Of a stretch of DNA of 64,000 nt, positions 2,443 through 63,459 are shown in pieces. Under the pieces are notes generated by a model, which saw only the letters and a list, made by a program, of their open reading frames with translations, did no database searches and had not been told where the DNA came from. How positions within the stretch are numbered: the stretch's first letter is position 1; the number at the start of each line of letters is the position of its first letter. The stretch is from Candidatus Kerfeldbacteria bacterium RIFCSPLOWO2_02_FULL_42_19 (GTDB lineage Bacteria; Patescibacteriota; Patescibacteriia; HO2-48-17), in contig MHKF01000018.1 of assembly GCA_001818315.1 (NCBI GenBank), forward strand, positions 64,325 through 128,324. Direction: 5' to 3'. Position numbers and translations under genes: made by a program.

Positions 2443-2467
2443 GTACGAAGCTATTTTTCAGTGGATC

Positions 2468-2640
2468 GTCGCCCCGAATACCATTTCTTGTTCAATACAT
2501 CATTCAATGCATAAGAAAAACAGGAGGAAGACTCTCCTTTCTCAGCACACTGTGCAGTGTTAGTGCTTCGAAAGCGAGAGTCTTCCTCCTGTTTTTCTAT
2601 GATCAAAATGTATTTTTCACAGACGAAAGTGCATTCGGCA
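2468..2640. repeat. Family-1 palindromic repeat element, copy 1 (central loop in inverted orientation)
   Basis: Outer stem cgccccgaata/gcattcggc; perfect 16-bp inner stem caggaggaagactctc/gagagtcttcctcctg followed by TTTTTCTAT. Shares the conserved 3' tail ttttctatgatcaaaatgtatttttcacagacgaaag with the copies at 29.6, 45.5 and 48.3 kb. Confidence 0.8.
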
Positions 2641-2679
2641 ATAATCCCTTTATCTTGGGCTTTATGATATGATAGGTGT

Positions 2680-29529: not shown

Positions 29530-29555
29530 GAGGCGTGCATTTTGTGTATGGGACT

Positions 29556-29717
29556 GTCACCAAATACTGTTTTTGTCTCATGCACAAAGCAAAAGAGGAG
29601 GAAAACTCTCGCTTTCGGAGCACTAACACTGCACCGTGTGCTGAGAAAGGAGAGTTTTCCTCCTCTTTTGCTATGATCAAAATGTATTTTTCACAGACGA
29701 AAGCGCATTCGGCGACA
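29556..29717. repeat. Family-1 palindromic repeat element, copy 2
   Basis: Inner stem gaggaggaaaactctc/gagagttttcctcctc (G-C to A-T covariation relative to copy 3), loop gctttcggagcactaacactgcaccgtgtgctgagaaag, conserved 3' tail; between convergent fmt and GT2 genes. Confidence 0.8.
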
Positions 29718-29723
29718 AACCCT

Positions 29724-45471: not shown

Positions 45472-45505
45472 ATTTTGGGCGCACTTAACAGTGTTTTTTG
45501 GGATT

Positions 45506-45666
45506 GTCGCCGAATAGCATTTCTTGTTCAATGCATTAGAAAAAGAGGAGGAAGACTCTCGCTTTCGAAGCACTAACACTGCACAGTGTGCTGAGAAAGG
45601 AGAGTCTTCCTCCTCTTTTTCTATGATCCAAATGTATTTTTCACAGAGGGAAGCGTATTCGGCGAC
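45506..45666. repeat. Family-1 palindromic repeat element, copy 3 (best-preserved copy)
   Basis: Outer stem tgtcgccgaata/tattcggcgaca; inner 16-bp stem gaggaggaagactctc/gagagtcttcctcctc flanked by AGAAAAAG and TCTTTTTCT. Confidence 0.85.
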
Positions 45667-45675
45667 AGCCCTTTT

Positions 45676-46427: not shown

Positions 46428-48203
46428 ATGACGGTGCGCAATTTGCATGATCCTTTGGAAGTAAAACGACACTCTTTCGCGCATTTGGTTGCTGCCGCTG
46501 TGACGCGTCTTTTTCCTGGCACTCATCTTGGTGTCGGCCCTGTGATCGATAATGGATTTTATCATGATTTTGAATTACCTGAAGGCAAAAAACTCTCTGA
46601 AGCAGATCTTCCGCGTATTGAAGCTATGGTGCGTCGATTGATTACCGAAGCGCAGGAATTTGCAAAAAAAATCGTCCCTATTCAGGAAGCGATACAACTT
46701 CTCCAGCAGCGTGGGCAAGTGTATACACAAGAACTTGCTGAAGATTTGGAAAAGGAGGGCATTCACGAAGTCAGTTTTTATAGCAACGGCGAATTTAGTA
46801 ATATGTGTACGGGTCCGCATATTCAAAACACTCGCTTGTTAGATTCACACGCTTTTAAACTCATGAATGTCGCTGGAGTATATTGGAAAGGTGATGAACA
46901 ACGTCCTCAAATTCAGCGTATCTATGGAGCAGCTTTTCATACCTCTCAAGCGCTTGAAGACTATCTGAAACTTCACGAGGAAGCAAAAAGACGAGATCAT
47001 CGAAAACTTGGTAAAGAGCTTGACCTTTTTGTTTTTTCCCCCTTGGTTGGCGCTGGACTCCCCTTGTTTACTTCGAAAGGCGCTCTCATCCGTAAACTCA
47101 TAAGTGATTTCATTCTCGAACTTCAAAAACCTTTTGGTTATCAACAAGTTTGGATTCCGCACCTTACAAAAACGGCGCTGTATAAAACTTCTGGGCATTG
47201 GGATAAATATAAAAACGATTTGTTTTATGTGCGTGGGAAACATGATAATGAATACGTTCTTAAGCCCATGAACTGCCCTCATCATACTCAAATTTATGCT
47301 TCGCGACTTCGGAGTTTCCGTGAACTTCCTTTGCGATTTGCTGAAGTTTCGACTACCTATCGTGATGAACAGCCTGGGGAACTTCAAGGTCTTTCGCGTG
47401 TGCTCGCTATTACTGTCGATGATGCACATTTATTTTGTACTCCCGAACAAGTTCTTTCGGAGGTCTTGAATATTTTTAAAATTATCGAGCCTTTTTATGC
47501 TGCGTTTCATTTACCTTTAACGATTCGTTTGTCGCTTCGCGATCCAGAACATCCCGAAAATTATCTTGGTTCCGAACACGTATGGGAACAATCCGAATCC
47601 CTCCTTGCGCAGGCAATTGAATCTTTCGGAAAAACGTATCTGAAGGTTCCGGGTGAAGCTGCGTTTTATGGACCAAAGATTGATTTTTTAGCGAAAGATT
47701 CGTTGGGTCGCAGTTGGCAGGTTGCGACAATACAAATTGATTTTAATCAGCCGGAGCGTTTTCAACTTGTCTATCAGGATCACGACGGCAAACCAAAAGC
47801 TCCGGTGATGATTCATCGCGCGATTGCCGGTTCTCTGGAACGTTTTATGGCTATTCTTATTGAGCATTTTGCTGGTGCGTTTCCGTTATGGCTTGCCCCT
47901 CTTCAGCTTGCGCTGCTTCCGGTTGCCGAACGGCATGTTGCGTTTGCACAAAAACTTGCCGCGGATTTTCGTGAGTATGATTTTCGTGTAGAAGTTTTTG
48001 ATACTTCAACAACGGTCAGCAAGAAAATTGTGGAAGCTGCAAAACTTCACATCCCTTATGTTTTGGTGCTCGGCGATAAAGAAATTGAGGAAAGAATGTT
48101 GTCGATTCGCAAACGAGGAAATAAAAAAGTTACTTCGACTTCAAAAGACGAATTTATTGCTTTGGTTCAGTCGGCTCTCAAGAGTCGCACTCTGGAATTA
48201 TAA
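46428..48203 (+). CDS. thrS: Threonyl-tRNA synthetase lacking the N-terminal TGS domain
   Basis: Begins in the editing domain (RHSFAHLVAAAV HxxxH), class II core, C-terminal anticodon-binding domain. Confidence 0.9.
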   Translation: MTVRNLHDPLEVKRHSFAHLVAAAVTRLFPGTHLGVGPVIDNGFYHDFELPEGKKLSEADLPRIEAMVRRLITEAQEFAKKIVPIQEAIQLLQQRGQVYTQELAEDLEKEGIHEVSFYSNGEFSNMCTGPHIQNTRLLDSHAFKLMNVAGVYWKGDEQRPQIQRIYGAAFHTSQALEDYLKLHEEAKRRDHRKLGKELDLFVFSPLVGAGLPLFTSKGALIRKLISDFILELQKPFGYQQVWIPHLTKTALYKTSGHWDKYKNDLFYVRGKHDNEYVLKPMNCPHHTQIYASRLRSFRELPLRFAEVSTTYRDEQPGELQGLSRVLAITVDDAHLFCTPEQVLSEVLNIFKIIEPFYAAFHLPLTIRLSLRDPEHPENYLGSEHVWEQSESLLAQAIESFGKTYLKVPGEAAFYGPKIDFLAKDSLGRSWQVATIQIDFNQPERFQLVYQDHDGKPKAPVMIHRAIAGSLERFMAILIEHFAGAFPLWLAPLQLALLPVAERHVAFAQKLAADFREYDFRVEVFDTSTTVSKKIVEAAKLHIPYVLVLGDKEIEERMLSIRKRGNKKVTSTSKDEFIALVQSALKSRTLEL

Positions 48204-48209
48204 CGGATC

Positions 48210-48355
48210 CTTCTTGCGTTTTGATAAACACACAGAGAAGGAAGTCTTTGTTTTCTCAGCGCATTGTGCACTGTCAGTGCTTTGAAAGTGAGAGTCTTTC
48301 TCCTCTTTTTCTATGATGAAAATTCATTTTGTAACAGAAAGGGTATTCGGCGCCA
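48210..48355. repeat. Family-1 palindromic repeat element, copy 4 (degenerate, inverted loop)
   Basis: gagagtctttctcct right stem, loop ttttctcagcgcattgtgcactgtcagtgctttgaaagt in copy-1 orientation, tail tttttctatgatgaaaattcattttgtaacagaaagggtattcggcg. Confidence 0.65.
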
Positions 48356-48383
48356 GTCCCTATTAGGTTTCGAAAGAGGACGT

Positions 48384-57611: not shown

Positions 57612-58059
57612 TATTTCTATCTTAAAAAGACCCTTGTTTCGGGTCAAATCAATCATTATTTATACTCTATCGTATTTTACTCATCCGCGCAAGTGCAAAA
57701 ATTTTTCTTCACACAGTCTAGACTTCATGCGTTGTATGAAGGGACTGTTGCCGAATACACTTTTGCCTGCAAAAATTACAGTGGACTTTTTACATGTTTC
57801 AATGCCGGATTGCTCACATGCGTATAGCGTTGCGTTGTCTTGATGTTGTTGTGTCCGAGCAACTCCTGGATATAACGAATATCTACCCCGTTTTCGAGGA
57901 GATGAGTCGCAAAGCTGTGCCGGAGTGAATGGAACGATGCTTGTTTTCGAATACCCGCACGCTTCAGCGCCTGATAAAATACTGCCTGAGCCGTACGAGA
58001 CGAAAGAGATCCACCGCGTTGACTTCTAAAGAGAAGATCGCGTGAGGTTGCAAAAGATT

Positions 58060-59080
58060 AGACCTGTTGCGTATTAAATATGGTATCATAAAGACAGAGT
58101 AGAAATTAAAACAACATAAAATATGAATCTTTCTAGAATTTTTCAGAATCCTCGGCAGTTAAAAGCATTAACCGGAGCATCGAAAGAAGAGTTCGATGAT
58201 CTGCTTCCAGTATTTGAGTCTTGCCTCAAGAGATTAAAGAAAGATCACAGTACTGCACAGAAAAGAAGGTTTGGTGGCGGTCCCAAAGGCAAACTTCCTA
58301 CGGTTGAACTCAAATTATTTTTCATCCTTATGTATGTCAAAGTATATCCCACCTTTGATGTTTTAGGTTTCCTCGTAGATTTTGATCGCTCAAGAGCCTG
58401 CAGGAACACTCATTTCCTCTTCACGGCACTGGAAAAATCCTTAGGGAGAAAGATTGTCTTACCCGAACGAAAAATTCGCTCAGTAGAGGCACTCTTTCAA
58501 AAGTTTCCTGATCTTAAGGATGTATTCGTTGATGGGCTGGAACGACCAGTCCAGCGACCAAAAAAGCAAAAACAACAACGAAAACTCTATTCGGGTAAAA
58601 AGAAAACCCACACCAAGAAGAGTGTGGTGGTGGTCGATGAAAAGAGACGCATCTTGTTGCTCACAAAAACCAAGTCAGGCAGGAGGCATGACAAGCGTTT
58701 GGCTGACAAACAAGCCTTGTTTGAATGGATTCCGGAATCGATTACCGTCTGGGTGGATACGGGTTTTCAAGGGATACGCAAACAACATACCAATACGATG
58801 ATCCCCAAGAAAGCAACCAAGGGACACCCCTTAACCTACCAAGAAAAACAAGAGAACAAAACAATTTCTGGTTTACGTGTGGTGGTAGAGCATGCTATTG
58901 GAGGTATAAGACGGTTCAGAAGCATTGCTGATATCTATCGGAATAGAAAAGCTTTTATGGAAGACAGATTTCTCAGAGTCGCCGCTGGACTCTGGAACTT
59001 ACATCTGAATCATACAACATAATCTCACAGGGAATGTGGAAATATATTGTTTGATTCTGATATTAATACGCAACAGGTCT
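58060..59080 (+). mobile_element. IS element (IS4/IS5-superfamily-like, single DDE transposase), ~1.02 kb, 18-bp perfect terminal inverted repeats, 3-bp ATT target duplication
   Basis: IRL AGACCTGTTGCGTATTAA (58060-58077) and IRR TTAATACGCAACAGGTCT (59063-59080) are exact reverse complements; flanked by ATT on both sides. Confidence 0.85.
58123..59022 (+). CDS. DDE transposase of the IS element
   Basis: YSGKKKTHTKKSVVVVDE...VDTGFQG...VEHAIGGIRRFRSIADIYRN pattern typical of IS5-family/Harbinger-like DDE transposases. Confidence 0.75.
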   Translation: MNLSRIFQNPRQLKALTGASKEEFDDLLPVFESCLKRLKKDHSTAQKRRFGGGPKGKLPTVELKLFFILMYVKVYPTFDVLGFLVDFDRSRACRNTHFLFTALEKSLGRKIVLPERKIRSVEALFQKFPDLKDVFVDGLERPVQRPKKQKQQRKLYSGKKKTHTKKSVVVVDEKRRILLLTKTKSGRRHDKRLADKQALFEWIPESITVWVDTGFQGIRKQHTNTMIPKKATKGHPLTYQEKQENKTISGLRVVVEHAIGGIRRFRSIADIYRNRKAFMEDRFLRVAAGLWNLHLNHTT

Positions 59081-59642
59081 ATTGAGAAGTGATGAGAGTA
59101 CGAAGATCTTGTATAAAATTTTTAGAGATGACTGTGAGTCGATCTTTGTTTCCTTTTCCATTACGAATGAATAGGAGAAGATTGTTCAGATCAATATCGC
59201 TCATACGAAGGCGGACTACCTCGCTTACGCGCAAACCCGAACCATATGTGAGCGCCAGTAATACTCGGTGTTTCAGATTGGCAGTACAAGCAATCATACG
59301 TCGAATTTCATCGCGTGTGAGAATAACGGGTAGTTTCCATGCACGTTTAGGATAATGAATATGAGTAAGCGGCGGGAGGTGATACAAATTGATTCGCGCG
59401 AAATTGATGGCGTGAATGTAAAGAGCGATGGTTTGACTCGAACGTCCTTTCTGGAGTTGATCTTGGATAAAGAATTTCATTTCATCCTCACCGATTTTGT
59501 TTATGCGCATTCGAAAGAATGTGTAGAGATTCCACAATGCACGGCTATAAGCGCTATAGGTTCGATAACTGTAATTTCGAACTTGTATTTCGCGTTTGAG
59601 TATTTCTAATAAACTTGGCATAATAAAAATGGGTGAATCCAC

Positions 59643-59767: not shown

Positions 59768-60196
59768 ATGAAAAATTTTTCATTTTCCGTAGACAAAGAT
59801 GTGGTGTCTGCCAAAGAAGCTATTAAGCTCTATCTCGCGCTGAAATGGGGCAATGAATCAAAGTACGATGAAAACAAAATGAAACAAGCTTTAGAAAGTA
59901 CAACGATGGTAATATCAGCTCGAGATAGAGCTGGAAAACTCGTCGGTTTGACGAGAGTATTGAGCGATGGCGTGATTCATACATCAGTGGCAGATATTGC
60001 CGTTCATCCTGAATATCAAGGTCAAGGTATTGGTACGCAGATGATGGAGTTAGTGAAAAAACAGTATGGCCACACCGGCATATTTGTCGATGCCTTTAAG
60101 GAAAATGAAAAATTTTTCATGGAGTGTGGATACAAAAAGAGAGATATGATAGTGCTTTCGAAGCTTTTTGTTAAAGAACCGTCGCACATCGCCTAA
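59768..60196 (+). CDS. Cassette 1: GNAT family N-acetyltransferase
   Basis: Acetyl-CoA binding motif QGQGIGTQMM; stop codon TAA lies inside the GCCTAAC inverse core. Confidence 0.8.
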   Translation: MKNFSFSVDKDVVSAKEAIKLYLALKWGNESKYDENKMKQALESTTMVISARDRAGKLVGLTRVLSDGVIHTSVADIAVHPEYQGQGIGTQMMELVKKQYGHTGIFVDAFKENEKFFMECGYKKRDMIVLSKLFVKEPSHIA

Positions 60197-60322
60197 CACG
60201 CAGTATGCGGCTACAGTTTGCTCCGTTTCACTCCGAAAACTTCCGCCCATATTCACTGGTTGTACCGTACTTCGTGCGATATTATACAGCCAGTGAACAT
60301 CGCATACTGCGGAACGTTGTGC
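60191..60322 (+). other. attC-like site 1 (132 bp imperfect palindrome, GCCTAAC ... GTTGTGC)
   Basis: Outer IR cgcagtatgcg/cgcatactgcg, inner IR tattcactggttgta/tacagccagtgaaca; ~85% identical to site 5. Confidence 0.7.
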
Positions 60323-63301: not shown

Positions 63302-63337
63302 ACGCAACTAAAAAATAATAGCTCTAAAAATTACATC

Positions 63338-63459
63338 ATATAACACTGCGTATGCGGCTACGGCTTGCTACGGAAGCCTTCGCCCATATTCACTGGCAGT
63401 AACGCGCTTCGCGCGATATTATACTGCCAGTGAATATCGCATACTGCGGAACGTTAGAT
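63338..63459 (+). other. attC-like site 5 (ATATAAC ... GTTAGAT), 122 bp
   Basis: Exact reverse-complement relationship to cassette-5 boundary GTTATAT; near-identical to site 1 (shared gtatgcggctac...cccatattcactgg...gcgatattatac.gccagtgaa.atcgcatactgcggaacgtt). Confidence 0.7.

Follow-up and report, generated by a model that had tools for sequence, protein, structure and literature searches.

A dispersed nested palindrome in a Kerfeldbacteria genome, with a hairpin tip that occurs in both orientations

When the arms of a hairpin keep their direction from copy to copy and its tip is found both ways round, has the tip been inverted, and what does this say about the hairpin? The question is raised by an intergenic palindrome near the beginning of a 64,000-nucleotide (nt) stretch of Candidatus Kerfeldbacteria bacterium RIFCSPLOWO2_02_FULL_42_19 (GenBank assembly GCA_001818315.1, contig MHKF01000018.1, positions 64,325 to 128,324 of the forward strand), here called the window. 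A first-pass annotation described the sequence at 2521–2590 as a stem-loop present in four copies, two of them with the loop reversed, and took the matching changes in its stem as a sign of selection. The sequence is as described, and it turns out to be the centre of a larger palindrome. The best reading of the whole, to which we give a probability of about 0.5 from the sequence evidence, is that the copies belong to a family of nested palindromes resembling MITEs (miniature transposable elements with inverted repeats), that they are predicted terminators, and that their tip would have been inverted across the inner repeat at some time in the past and is not an active switch.

The element and the two orientations of its core

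A repeat search found four copies in the window of a nested palindrome of about 170 nt, all intergenic, and their boundaries were set with an nhmmer profile built from the four. They are named c1 to c4, and c5 is a copy outside the window, on a JGI contig (L014; also L035). The parts of the element are listed here, with c1 in full.

2463..2648, + strand: c1, whole element, core in orientation A (nhmmer E = 7e-54; alignment)
2463..2481, + strand: c1, left outer inverted repeat, GGATCGTCGCCCCGAATAC (sequence and alignment)
2514..2536, + strand: c1, left arm of the inner stem, AGAAAAACAGGAGGAAGACTCTC (inverted repeat of 23 nt, 100% complementary, arms 39 nt apart)
2537..2575, + strand: c1, 39-nt core in orientation A, the imperfect hairpin tip (loop comparison and fold)
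2576..2598, + strand: c1, right arm of the inner stem (same 23-nt inverted repeat)
2599..2648, + strand: c1, long right arm and right outer inverted repeat (alignment)
29550..29722, + strand: c2, whole element, stems at 29585–29610 and 29650–29675, core at 29611–29649 in orientation B
45500..45671, + strand: c3, whole element, stems at 45537–45560 and 45600–45623, core at 45561–45599 in orientation B
about 48194..48360, + strand: c4, decayed element, degenerate left stem at 48228–48250, core at 48251–48289 in orientation A, right stem at 48290–48312
57741..57785, − strand: sixth copy, truncated, of which the outer inverted repeat and some 27 nt of long-arm sequence are left (nhmmer E = 2e-4; alignment)

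The element is 167–186 nt long, and the open reading frames (ORFs) across its copies are inconsistent, as in non-coding DNA. It is bounded by an outer inverted repeat of 17–19 bp, GGGAyTGTCGCCGAATAC / GTATTCGGCGACAnnCCC, which is found in c1–c3 and c5 and of which the left one is degenerate in c4; the consensus TGTCGCCGAATAC has 7 matches as compared to 1.4 expected. Next to it lies a short left arm of about 20 nt, extended to about 32 nt in c1 by a 12-nt duplication, and on the other side a longer right arm (ATGATCAAAATGTATTTTTCACAGACGAAAGCG). The unequal length and sequence of the arms give the element a polarity, which on the + strand is shared by the four copies of the window. The duplication in c1 is in tandem, at 2491–2514 (TTCAATACATCA / TTCAATGCATAA), and c3 and c5 are without it.

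Between the arms lies the inner stem, which was first given as 16 bp; the perfect stem is longer, 23–26 bp, and is perfect in c1–c3. Its left arm is nearly pure purine, AGAAAAAGAGGAGGAAGA, followed by CTCTC. For c1 this means an 18-nt tract, AGAAAAACAGGAGGAAGA, all purine but one C, and then CTCTC on the left side, and GAGAG followed by the 18-nt TCTTCCTCCTGTTTTTCT, pyrimidine but one G and with a T run at the end, on the right. Stem, loop and stem together span 85–91 bp. The truncated sixth copy has one mismatch to the outer repeat, and the other parts of the element are gone. With it, about 100 kb of the organism have yielded six copies, five complete and this one truncated. What had been taken for a plain stem-loop lies at the centre of a larger nested palindrome, which behaves like a mobile dispersed repeat.

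The 39-nt core is in orientation A in c1, c4 and c5 and in orientation B in c2 and c3. Compared with the c1 core, the reverse complement of c3 has 0/39 mismatches and that of c2 has 2/39, whereas A and B cores read in the same direction differ at 31–32 of the 39 positions. The core of the decayed c4, read directly, is identical to c1 at 32/39 positions. The reverse complementarity originally reported between copies 1 and 4 and copies 2 and 3 is thus confirmed, exact for c1 and c3 and approximate for the others, and so is the constant direction of the flanks, since the arms on either side of the core are co-linear in the alignment of all copies. Over all the flipped cores the mismatches number 0–4/39 and the inverted tract is bounded exactly by the arms of the inverted repeat. 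Shuffled sequence gave no loop matches of this kind.

Aligned with its own reverse complement, the loop still shows 8 mismatches and 6 gap positions, about 14 differences in all, and with so many asymmetric positions separating the states, a few point changes cannot convert A to B. By far the most economical account of an exact 39-nt reverse complement within co-linear arms would be an inversion between the arms of the inverted repeat. As a minimum number one inversion is enough, and it may be placed on the branch to c2 and c3, since A occurs in both right-arm subfamilies (c1; c4 and c5) and B only in c2 and c3.

Does the core still turn? The DNA of the window, which comes from a Patescibacteria lineage of the Rifle aquifer, recurs in two metagenome-assembled genomes (MAGs), GCA_001818335.1 and GCA_001818735.1, as well as in numerous contigs of ENA, JGI and Logan. 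Five other assemblies cover c1, all with orientation A; three are complete, and two are Logan contigs ending within the core. For c2 another five, among them a JGI contig and the second NCBI MAG, agree on B and have the identical sequence. Three assemblies show the core of c3 as B (L001 and L002 with identical sequence, L003 in part), six show that of c4 as A (identical in L001/L002 and in L025–L027/L029), and c5 is identical in JGI and ENA contigs. The assemblies compared are consensus sequences of essentially one strain (about 99.98–100% identical), representing almost no evolutionary time, and minority variants are invisible in them. The single orientation per locus argues against high-frequency switching, nothing more. 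A check for both orientations at one locus, as the first-pass annotation proposed, found one only in these consensus sequences of nearly 100% identical strains. The inversion between the repeats proposed earlier stands as the economical account with a documented route (PMC8794818), but the three to six assemblies per locus show no sign that it is going on at present.

The orientations might be unreal if the palindrome had been mis-threaded in assembly. Logan contigs, built from a de Bruijn graph with k = 31, do break inside the element or at its edge (L003, L022, L023, L042 and L043). In L022 and L023 the break lies exactly where the first 31-mer becomes common to c1 and the reverse complement of c3, which points to a true repeat in the k = 31 graph and not to heterogeneity. 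Contigs assembled with k = 141 span the 85-nt core together with unique arms, and independent assemblies of five kinds are concordant at every locus, among them MEGAHIT k141 contigs of several ENA samples, the two NCBI MAGs, and contigs of JGI and Logan. An artefact of assembly is so improbable that we give it hardly any weight. The repeat family is thus a practical cause of fragmentation in these assemblies of candidate phyla radiation (CPR) bacteria.

The hairpin and its gene neighbourhood

In the predicted fold, the "loop" is the imperfect tip of a hairpin of about 40 bp inside the larger nested palindrome. The core has two helices, CTTTC/GAAAG and AGCAC/GTGCT, plus a short third helix at the apex, and they are interrupted by a 1-nt bulge (an unpaired C, on the 3' side in c1), a 2×2 internal loop and a 4-nt bulge. 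The internal loop is TC/TC in one orientation and GA/GA in the other, and the asymmetries swap sides when the core is flipped. The core hairpins of c1, c2, c3 and c5 fold with energies between −52 and −58 kcal/mol and z scores between −7.7 and −10.8, and the whole element folds as a single long hairpin at −69 to −94 kcal/mol. In c4, six stem positions are unpaired and there is no significant fold (z = −1.2). A triplex-forming mirror repeat was also considered and rejected, the arms being Watson-Crick complements and not mirror repeats.

The stem carries changes on both sides at three positions. Position 7 is G-C, and A-T in c2; position 16 is G-C, and C-G in c1; position 21 is A-T, and C-G in c2 and c5. 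The first two had been pointed out before and are present, and position 21 raises the count from two to three. No stem position in c1–c3 has changed on one side alone. With n = 5 sequences, three double-sided pairs were reached by 12 of 500 shuffles and four double-sided cells by 2 of 500, and in controls with the partner slid along the stem, double-sided changes appeared solely at a slide of −3 (two pairs, two cells).

The first-pass annotation went from these covariations to selection on the hairpin. This step is not required, and the conclusion does not follow. Template switching, or copying from arm to arm, gives compensated changes without any selection (PMC8794818), and c4 has lost its hairpin altogether; both weaken the argument for selection. 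Selection on one strand as RNA was looked for in the balance of G-U and A-C cells, and was set aside at 5 versus 2, too few to carry meaning.

The genes of the window, which include those for DnaE, ThrRS, Fmt, MreB and ribosomal proteins, are those of a bacterial chromosome. The complete copies are flanked as follows.

stop 2442 and start 2680: GT4 glycosyltransferase and holB, flanking c1, which begins 20 nt after the stop and ends 31 nt before the start
stop 29529 and stop 29724: fmt and GT2 glycosyltransferase, convergent, flanking c2 at 20 nt and 1 nt from the stops
stop 45471 and stop 45676: Baseplate_J-like gene and riboflavin synthase, convergent, flanking c3 at 28 nt and 4 nt from the stops
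stop 48201–48203 and stop 48384: ThrRS and DUF7897 gene, flanking c4, which runs over the first of these stops and ends at a distance of 23 nt from the second
outside the window: M32 carboxypeptidase and TPR gene, both on one strand, flanking c5, which is reversed so that transcription enters via the long arm

All five complete copies are within 0–28 nt of a stop codon, and three are between convergent genes. On both strands the inner stem has an A run before it and a T run after it, with the stem end TTTTTCT paired to the A run; TTTA or TTTTTT comes after the outer stem, on the + strand alone. The stability of the hairpin, the A and T runs, the T-rich tail and the position after stops, mostly of convergent genes, suggest that the element may serve as a predicted, possibly bidirectional, intrinsic (Rho-independent) terminator or as a hairpin that protects or stabilises 3' ends, roles of the kind proposed for SPRITE and other MITEs (PMC10969869). 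The terminator scan that was used scores loops of at most 8 nt only. Relative to the neighbouring genes, c1 is read from its short arm and c5 from its long arm. As c5 is a reversed element with a core that is A relative to its arms, the direction of transcription goes with neither a fixed polarity nor a fixed orientation of the core.

A separate observation concerns c1, which is the sole window copy with a co-directional gene downstream. In this copy only, the right outer repeat has changed from GGCGACAA to GGCAATAA, and the substitutions give rise to a promoter-like site, TTCACA-18-AATAAT, at 2616–2645. The site faces holB and lies 35 nt upstream of its start codon (2680).

A segment found both ways round between inverted repeats, and conserved in both orientations, could be the work of a programmed switch of the inverton type, in which a site-specific recombinase flips the core, shifting the bulges or motif to the other strand, and so regulates the termination of the flanking genes. 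The window even has a tyrosine recombinase gene beside the truncated copy. This gene, at 57.79–59.64 kb, is the only recombinase gene in the window, is split by an insertion sequence (IS) and is 8–55 kb away from the complete copies. Known invertons span from about 100 bp to several kb, and a spacer of 39 bp is far too short for looping of the duplex and synapsis. Neither the promoter scan listing nor reading of the sequence gave a promoter-like match inside the core, and no peptide was evident there on reading. Nor is the form on the transcribed strand consistent, being A for c1 and B for c5, and in all assemblies each locus has one orientation. A switch of this type is very unlikely.

Relatives, mobility and neighbouring mobile DNA

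The fifth copy came from a scan of JGI metagenomes and was the sole new locus; the other outputs were c2 again and chance matches. It is probably from the same organism as the window, since L035 shares its sample with a window-identical contig. A pattern scan of the GTDB representative genomes, which do not include the source species, did not find the element and returned five chance matches in unrelated bacteria. Two scans of viral contigs, one with the core and one with the outer repeat, gave no match, and neither did BLAST against plasmids. The whole window had no match in Rfam 15 at the gathering thresholds, and the scan for tRNA and tmRNA gave none. In E-value mode, c3 matched only generic long-hairpin families, all below threshold. 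The best sub-threshold match of the core was the hairpin of the plastid psbA 3' untranslated region (UTR), at 37.9 bits as compared to a gathering threshold of 55.8, a generic resemblance only.

To see the loci in related genomes, we must go some distance, as the relatives found through the protein collection are either strains of about 100% identity or at most 80% (ThrRS), 75% (M32) and 68% (DUF7897) identical. The relative with 80% ThrRS and 75% M32 identity lacks the element in all three orthologous spacers examined: where the window has c3 there is a simple hairpin of 18 bp, in place of c4 a palindrome unrelated to the element, and at the c5 locus nothing. Relatives at 61–64% have spacers of 57–94 nt at the c3 locus, too small for an element of about 170 nt, and of 0–36 nt at the c4 locus. 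One related element was found in another Kerfeldbacteria genome, at a locus that differs from those of the window copies.

L011 4444–4608 (GCA_001818775.1, MHKD01000042.1), opposite polarity: related element, a 160-nt hairpin of −87.6 kcal/mol, between divergent genes

This element has the same outer repeat (GTCTGTCGCCGAATAC / GTATTCGGCGACAGAC; 22 nt, 91% complementary) and homologous arm ends, and its core is a different palindrome, ATCATGGAATTTTG...CAAAATTCCATGAT. The outer repeat is thus kept between Kerfeldbacteria species of which the ThrRS is only 61% identical.

Short AT-rich direct repeats flank some of the elements: TTTTTT at c3, ATTAT at c5, TTTA at the L011 element and T(G/T)TAT, 4/5, at c2, all of them short enough for chance to be possible. 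The lineage-specific presence, the dispersed copies, the terminal repeats and these short flanking repeats suggest that the family would be a MITE-like, non-autonomous mobile element. Both this type of repeat and the phenomenon of loop inversion are already known; no description of this family and its host was found in the literature searched.

The window has one complete IS, of the IS5-like type, and it was tried as the parent of the family. It was rejected, the terminal repeat, AGACCTGTTGCGTATTAA, matching the outer repeat at 9/18 positions ungapped. The IS lies at 58058–59077 and has an intact 299-aa DDE_Tnp_1 transposase (58123–59022), 18-bp terminal repeats and 3-bp ATT flanks, and it is single-copy at its locus in all assemblies. 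It splits the gene of an Xer-like tyrosine recombinase at 57786–59642 on the − strand, leaving the N-terminal part at 59079–59642 and the C-terminal catalytic part (HSLRH...Y) at about 57786–58057. The truncated sixth copy of the palindrome directly abuts the stop codon of the recombinase, as if a segment bearing the recombinase had replaced part of the element or integrated into it.

Beyond the recombinase, from 59768 to the end of the window and further in L025–L027 to the equivalent of about 66.4 kb, there are at least nine small unrelated ORFs, all on the + strand and with spacers of 150–300 nt. Among them are an acetyltransferase, a RidA-like protein, an ACT-domain protein, a uracil-DNA glycosylase, a methyltransferase and several without domains. 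A second nested palindrome, unrelated to the first, occurs here twice (60186–60318 and 63333–63455, about 80% identity), both times between small ORFs. It has an outer repeat CGCAGTATGCG/CGCATACTGCG and an inner one TTCACTGG/CCAGTGAA, and its boundaries, ...TAAC and GTT..., are attC-like. The layout is like that of a cassette array, but the recombinase is without the insertion of integron integrases, and the contigs end in another IS.

The element that is the subject of this study was itself considered as an integron attC site. Its ends are GGGAyTGTCGCC / GGCGACAnnCCC and not RYYYAAC ... GTTRRRY, and its copies are 3–27 kb apart among housekeeping genes. IntI integrases carry a specific insertion, which the window recombinase does not have; it is Xer-like, with about 60 aa between the KDR and HSLRH motifs. 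Both the attC site and the integron were rejected.

How the core may have turned, and known systems

The order of events that we consider most likely would begin with a MITE-like element landing in AT-rich DNA directly after stop codons. Its perfect inner arms of 23–26 bp would then provide a substrate for a switch or for recombination, and the most likely route, as judged from the copies, would be that the replisome switched template twice inside the hairpin, by which the 39-nt tip was inverted. The family would have undergone this at least once, and the flipped form would afterwards have been inherited or copied, as in c2 and c3. The same templating of one arm by the other, possibly aided by selection for a stable hairpin, may have given the compensated pairs of the stem. 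Template switching has been found to give fully inverted loops and multi-base compensatory stem changes in hairpins, in single events (PMC8794818). Hairpin-associated inversions of 4–50 bp are pervasive in the non-coding DNA of plastids (PMC12371153), and for the Correia MITE of Neisseria, inversion of the interior between the repeats is reported (PMC10969869, where Elbeyioglu et al. 2017 are cited).

Several observations weigh against this account. The complete copies are only five and paralogous, and independent inversions cannot be counted from them. Their groupings conflict: c2 and c3 against c1, c4 and c5 by the orientation of the core, c1–c3 against c4 and c5 by the type of right arm, and c2 and c5 against c1, c3 and c4 by stem pair 21. 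Such a conflict of characters implies either a parallel double change (homoplasy) or exchange between copies. With regard to mobility, target-site duplications are not evident at c1 and c4, and no matching autonomous transposase was found in the window. The position after stops, on which the predicted terminator role partly depends, is not shared by the related element in L011, which sits between divergent gene starts. Finally, the core diverges by 0–10%, and the 85-nt core as a whole by 2–10% whatever its orientation, as compared to 9–39% for the arms, and purely neutral mutation does not predict this.

The conserved core amid drifting arms was the result that we least expected, and it is not fully explained. 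Among c1, c2, c3 and c5, the loops differ at 0–4/39 positions and each stem arm at 1–3/23, whereas the left arms differ at 5–14 of about 37 and the right arms at 4–14 of about 50. Possible reasons are a stronger constraint on the core, conversion between copies that homogenises the cores, or a core that is a younger module than the arms.

The second of these possibilities leads to another route to the inversion. If the flipped core was copied by ectopic conversion from a member of the family in the opposite chromosomal orientation, the inverted copies would pair via their palindromic stems, and a conversion tract ending in the stems would transplant the core backwards and at the same time make the cores alike. 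The cores are indeed far more alike than the arms; between c1 and c3 the loops are identical in opposite orientation and each stem arm has 1/23 differences, while the right arm has 9/47. The conflict of characters also suggests exchange among copies, and copies do exist in both orientations relative to their neighbour genes (c1 and c5). On the other hand, no pair of donor and recipient can be identified, homology of 23–26 bp on either side is short for a conversion that depends on RecA, and a stronger constraint on the core would explain its conservation equally well. We regard conversion as a rather unlikely origin of the flipped cores, though one to be taken seriously.

If instead the core is the younger part, the stem-loop-stem of 85–91 bp could be a mobile module of its own, inserted either way round at a specific site in the middle of an older element made up of the arms. 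This would fit a core that looks younger and more conserved than the arms, and also the element in L011, which has the same outer repeats and arm ends around a wholly different core. It is difficult to reconcile with the junctions of the core, which are identical in all five complete copies and would require five insertions at the same nucleotide; otherwise the explanation collapses into an inversion within an existing element. Moreover, in about 100 kb of the organism neither a solo core nor an intact pair of arms lacking a core was found. A nested insertion is improbable.

It is also conceivable that the core is an asymmetric hairpin recognised by a protein on one strand, or in one transcript, and that its flipping is regulated or recurrent, based for instance on cruciforms or single-stranded DNA, and by moving the bulges to the other strand chooses which of two convergent genes is terminated or processed. 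The sole hint of this is the 39-nt core itself, nearly identical in both orientations while the arms drift. Analogues would be the choice of strand at attC sites and the flip/flop of viral ends. We find such a role highly improbable.

The historical inversion of the tip across the inner repeat, in a MITE-like family, is therefore the reading that we retain. CPR bacteria have tiny genomes and few described mobile repeats. If the reading is true, the family would be a clean natural case from this group of one mutational process, template switching across a perfect stem, giving both the inversion of a loop and "compensatory" substitutions, in a MITE-like terminator hairpin. It would also be a caution that covariation in palindromic DNA repeats is not proof of selection on RNA structure. 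For annotation of Kerfeldbacteria genomes, the family can be recognised by its outer repeat, TGTCGCCGAATAC, and it explains some of the contig breaks. The finding opens no new mechanism; it looks like an ordinary replication accident kept in a mobile repeat family.

Among known systems, the Correia element of Neisseria (CREE, Correia repeat enclosed element), a classic MITE of bacteria, is similar in many respects. It is a non-coding palindrome of 100–200 bp with terminal inverted repeats, intergenic copies and a stable RNA hairpin. It can supply promoters, as compared to the promoter-like site of c1, and its interior is reported to invert, as already mentioned (PMC10969869). There is no sequence similarity between the two. 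The element described here has a second, perfect inner repeat of 23–26 bp and only its 39-nt tip flips, its direct repeats, if real, are 4–6 bp and AT-rich while those of CREE are TA, and its host belongs to the CPR.

The minute inversions of plastids (Kelchner & Wendel 1996; psbA 3' UTR / trnH-psbA) are also similar. They concern a loop of 4–50 bp that lies downstream of a gene, between perfect repeats, and that from one lineage to another may be turned into its exact reverse complement; they are attributed to the hairpin itself (PMC12371153). In plastids the loci are orthologous, compared across species or individuals, and homoplasious flipping has been demonstrated, whereas here the two states are seen only among paralogous copies in one genome. 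The work of Mönttinen & Löytynoja (2022) bears on the mechanism, as one event can give both loop inversion and multi-base compensatory changes, the pair of signals that the first-pass annotation described (PMC8794818). Their cases are rRNA and miRNA genes with short stems and reconstructed ancestors; ours is a proposed mechanism, read from the copies.

As dispersed hairpins at the 3' ends of genes, resembling Rho-independent terminators or altering the stability of mRNA, the SPRITE, BOX and RUP elements of Streptococcus pneumoniae and the ERIC elements of enterobacteria resemble the present family (PMC10969869). They have other sequences and other hosts. We know of no description of a core flip in any of them. 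The flip/flop ends of parvoviruses and the telomeres of poxviruses are imperfect palindromes in two reverse-complement forms, which differ in the strand that carries the unpaired bases, as the two cores do here. The viral forms are at the ends of linear DNA, where hairpin transfer and resolution in each round of replication produce them 1:1, whereas the element of Kerfeldbacteria is internal to a chromosome and has one form per locus.

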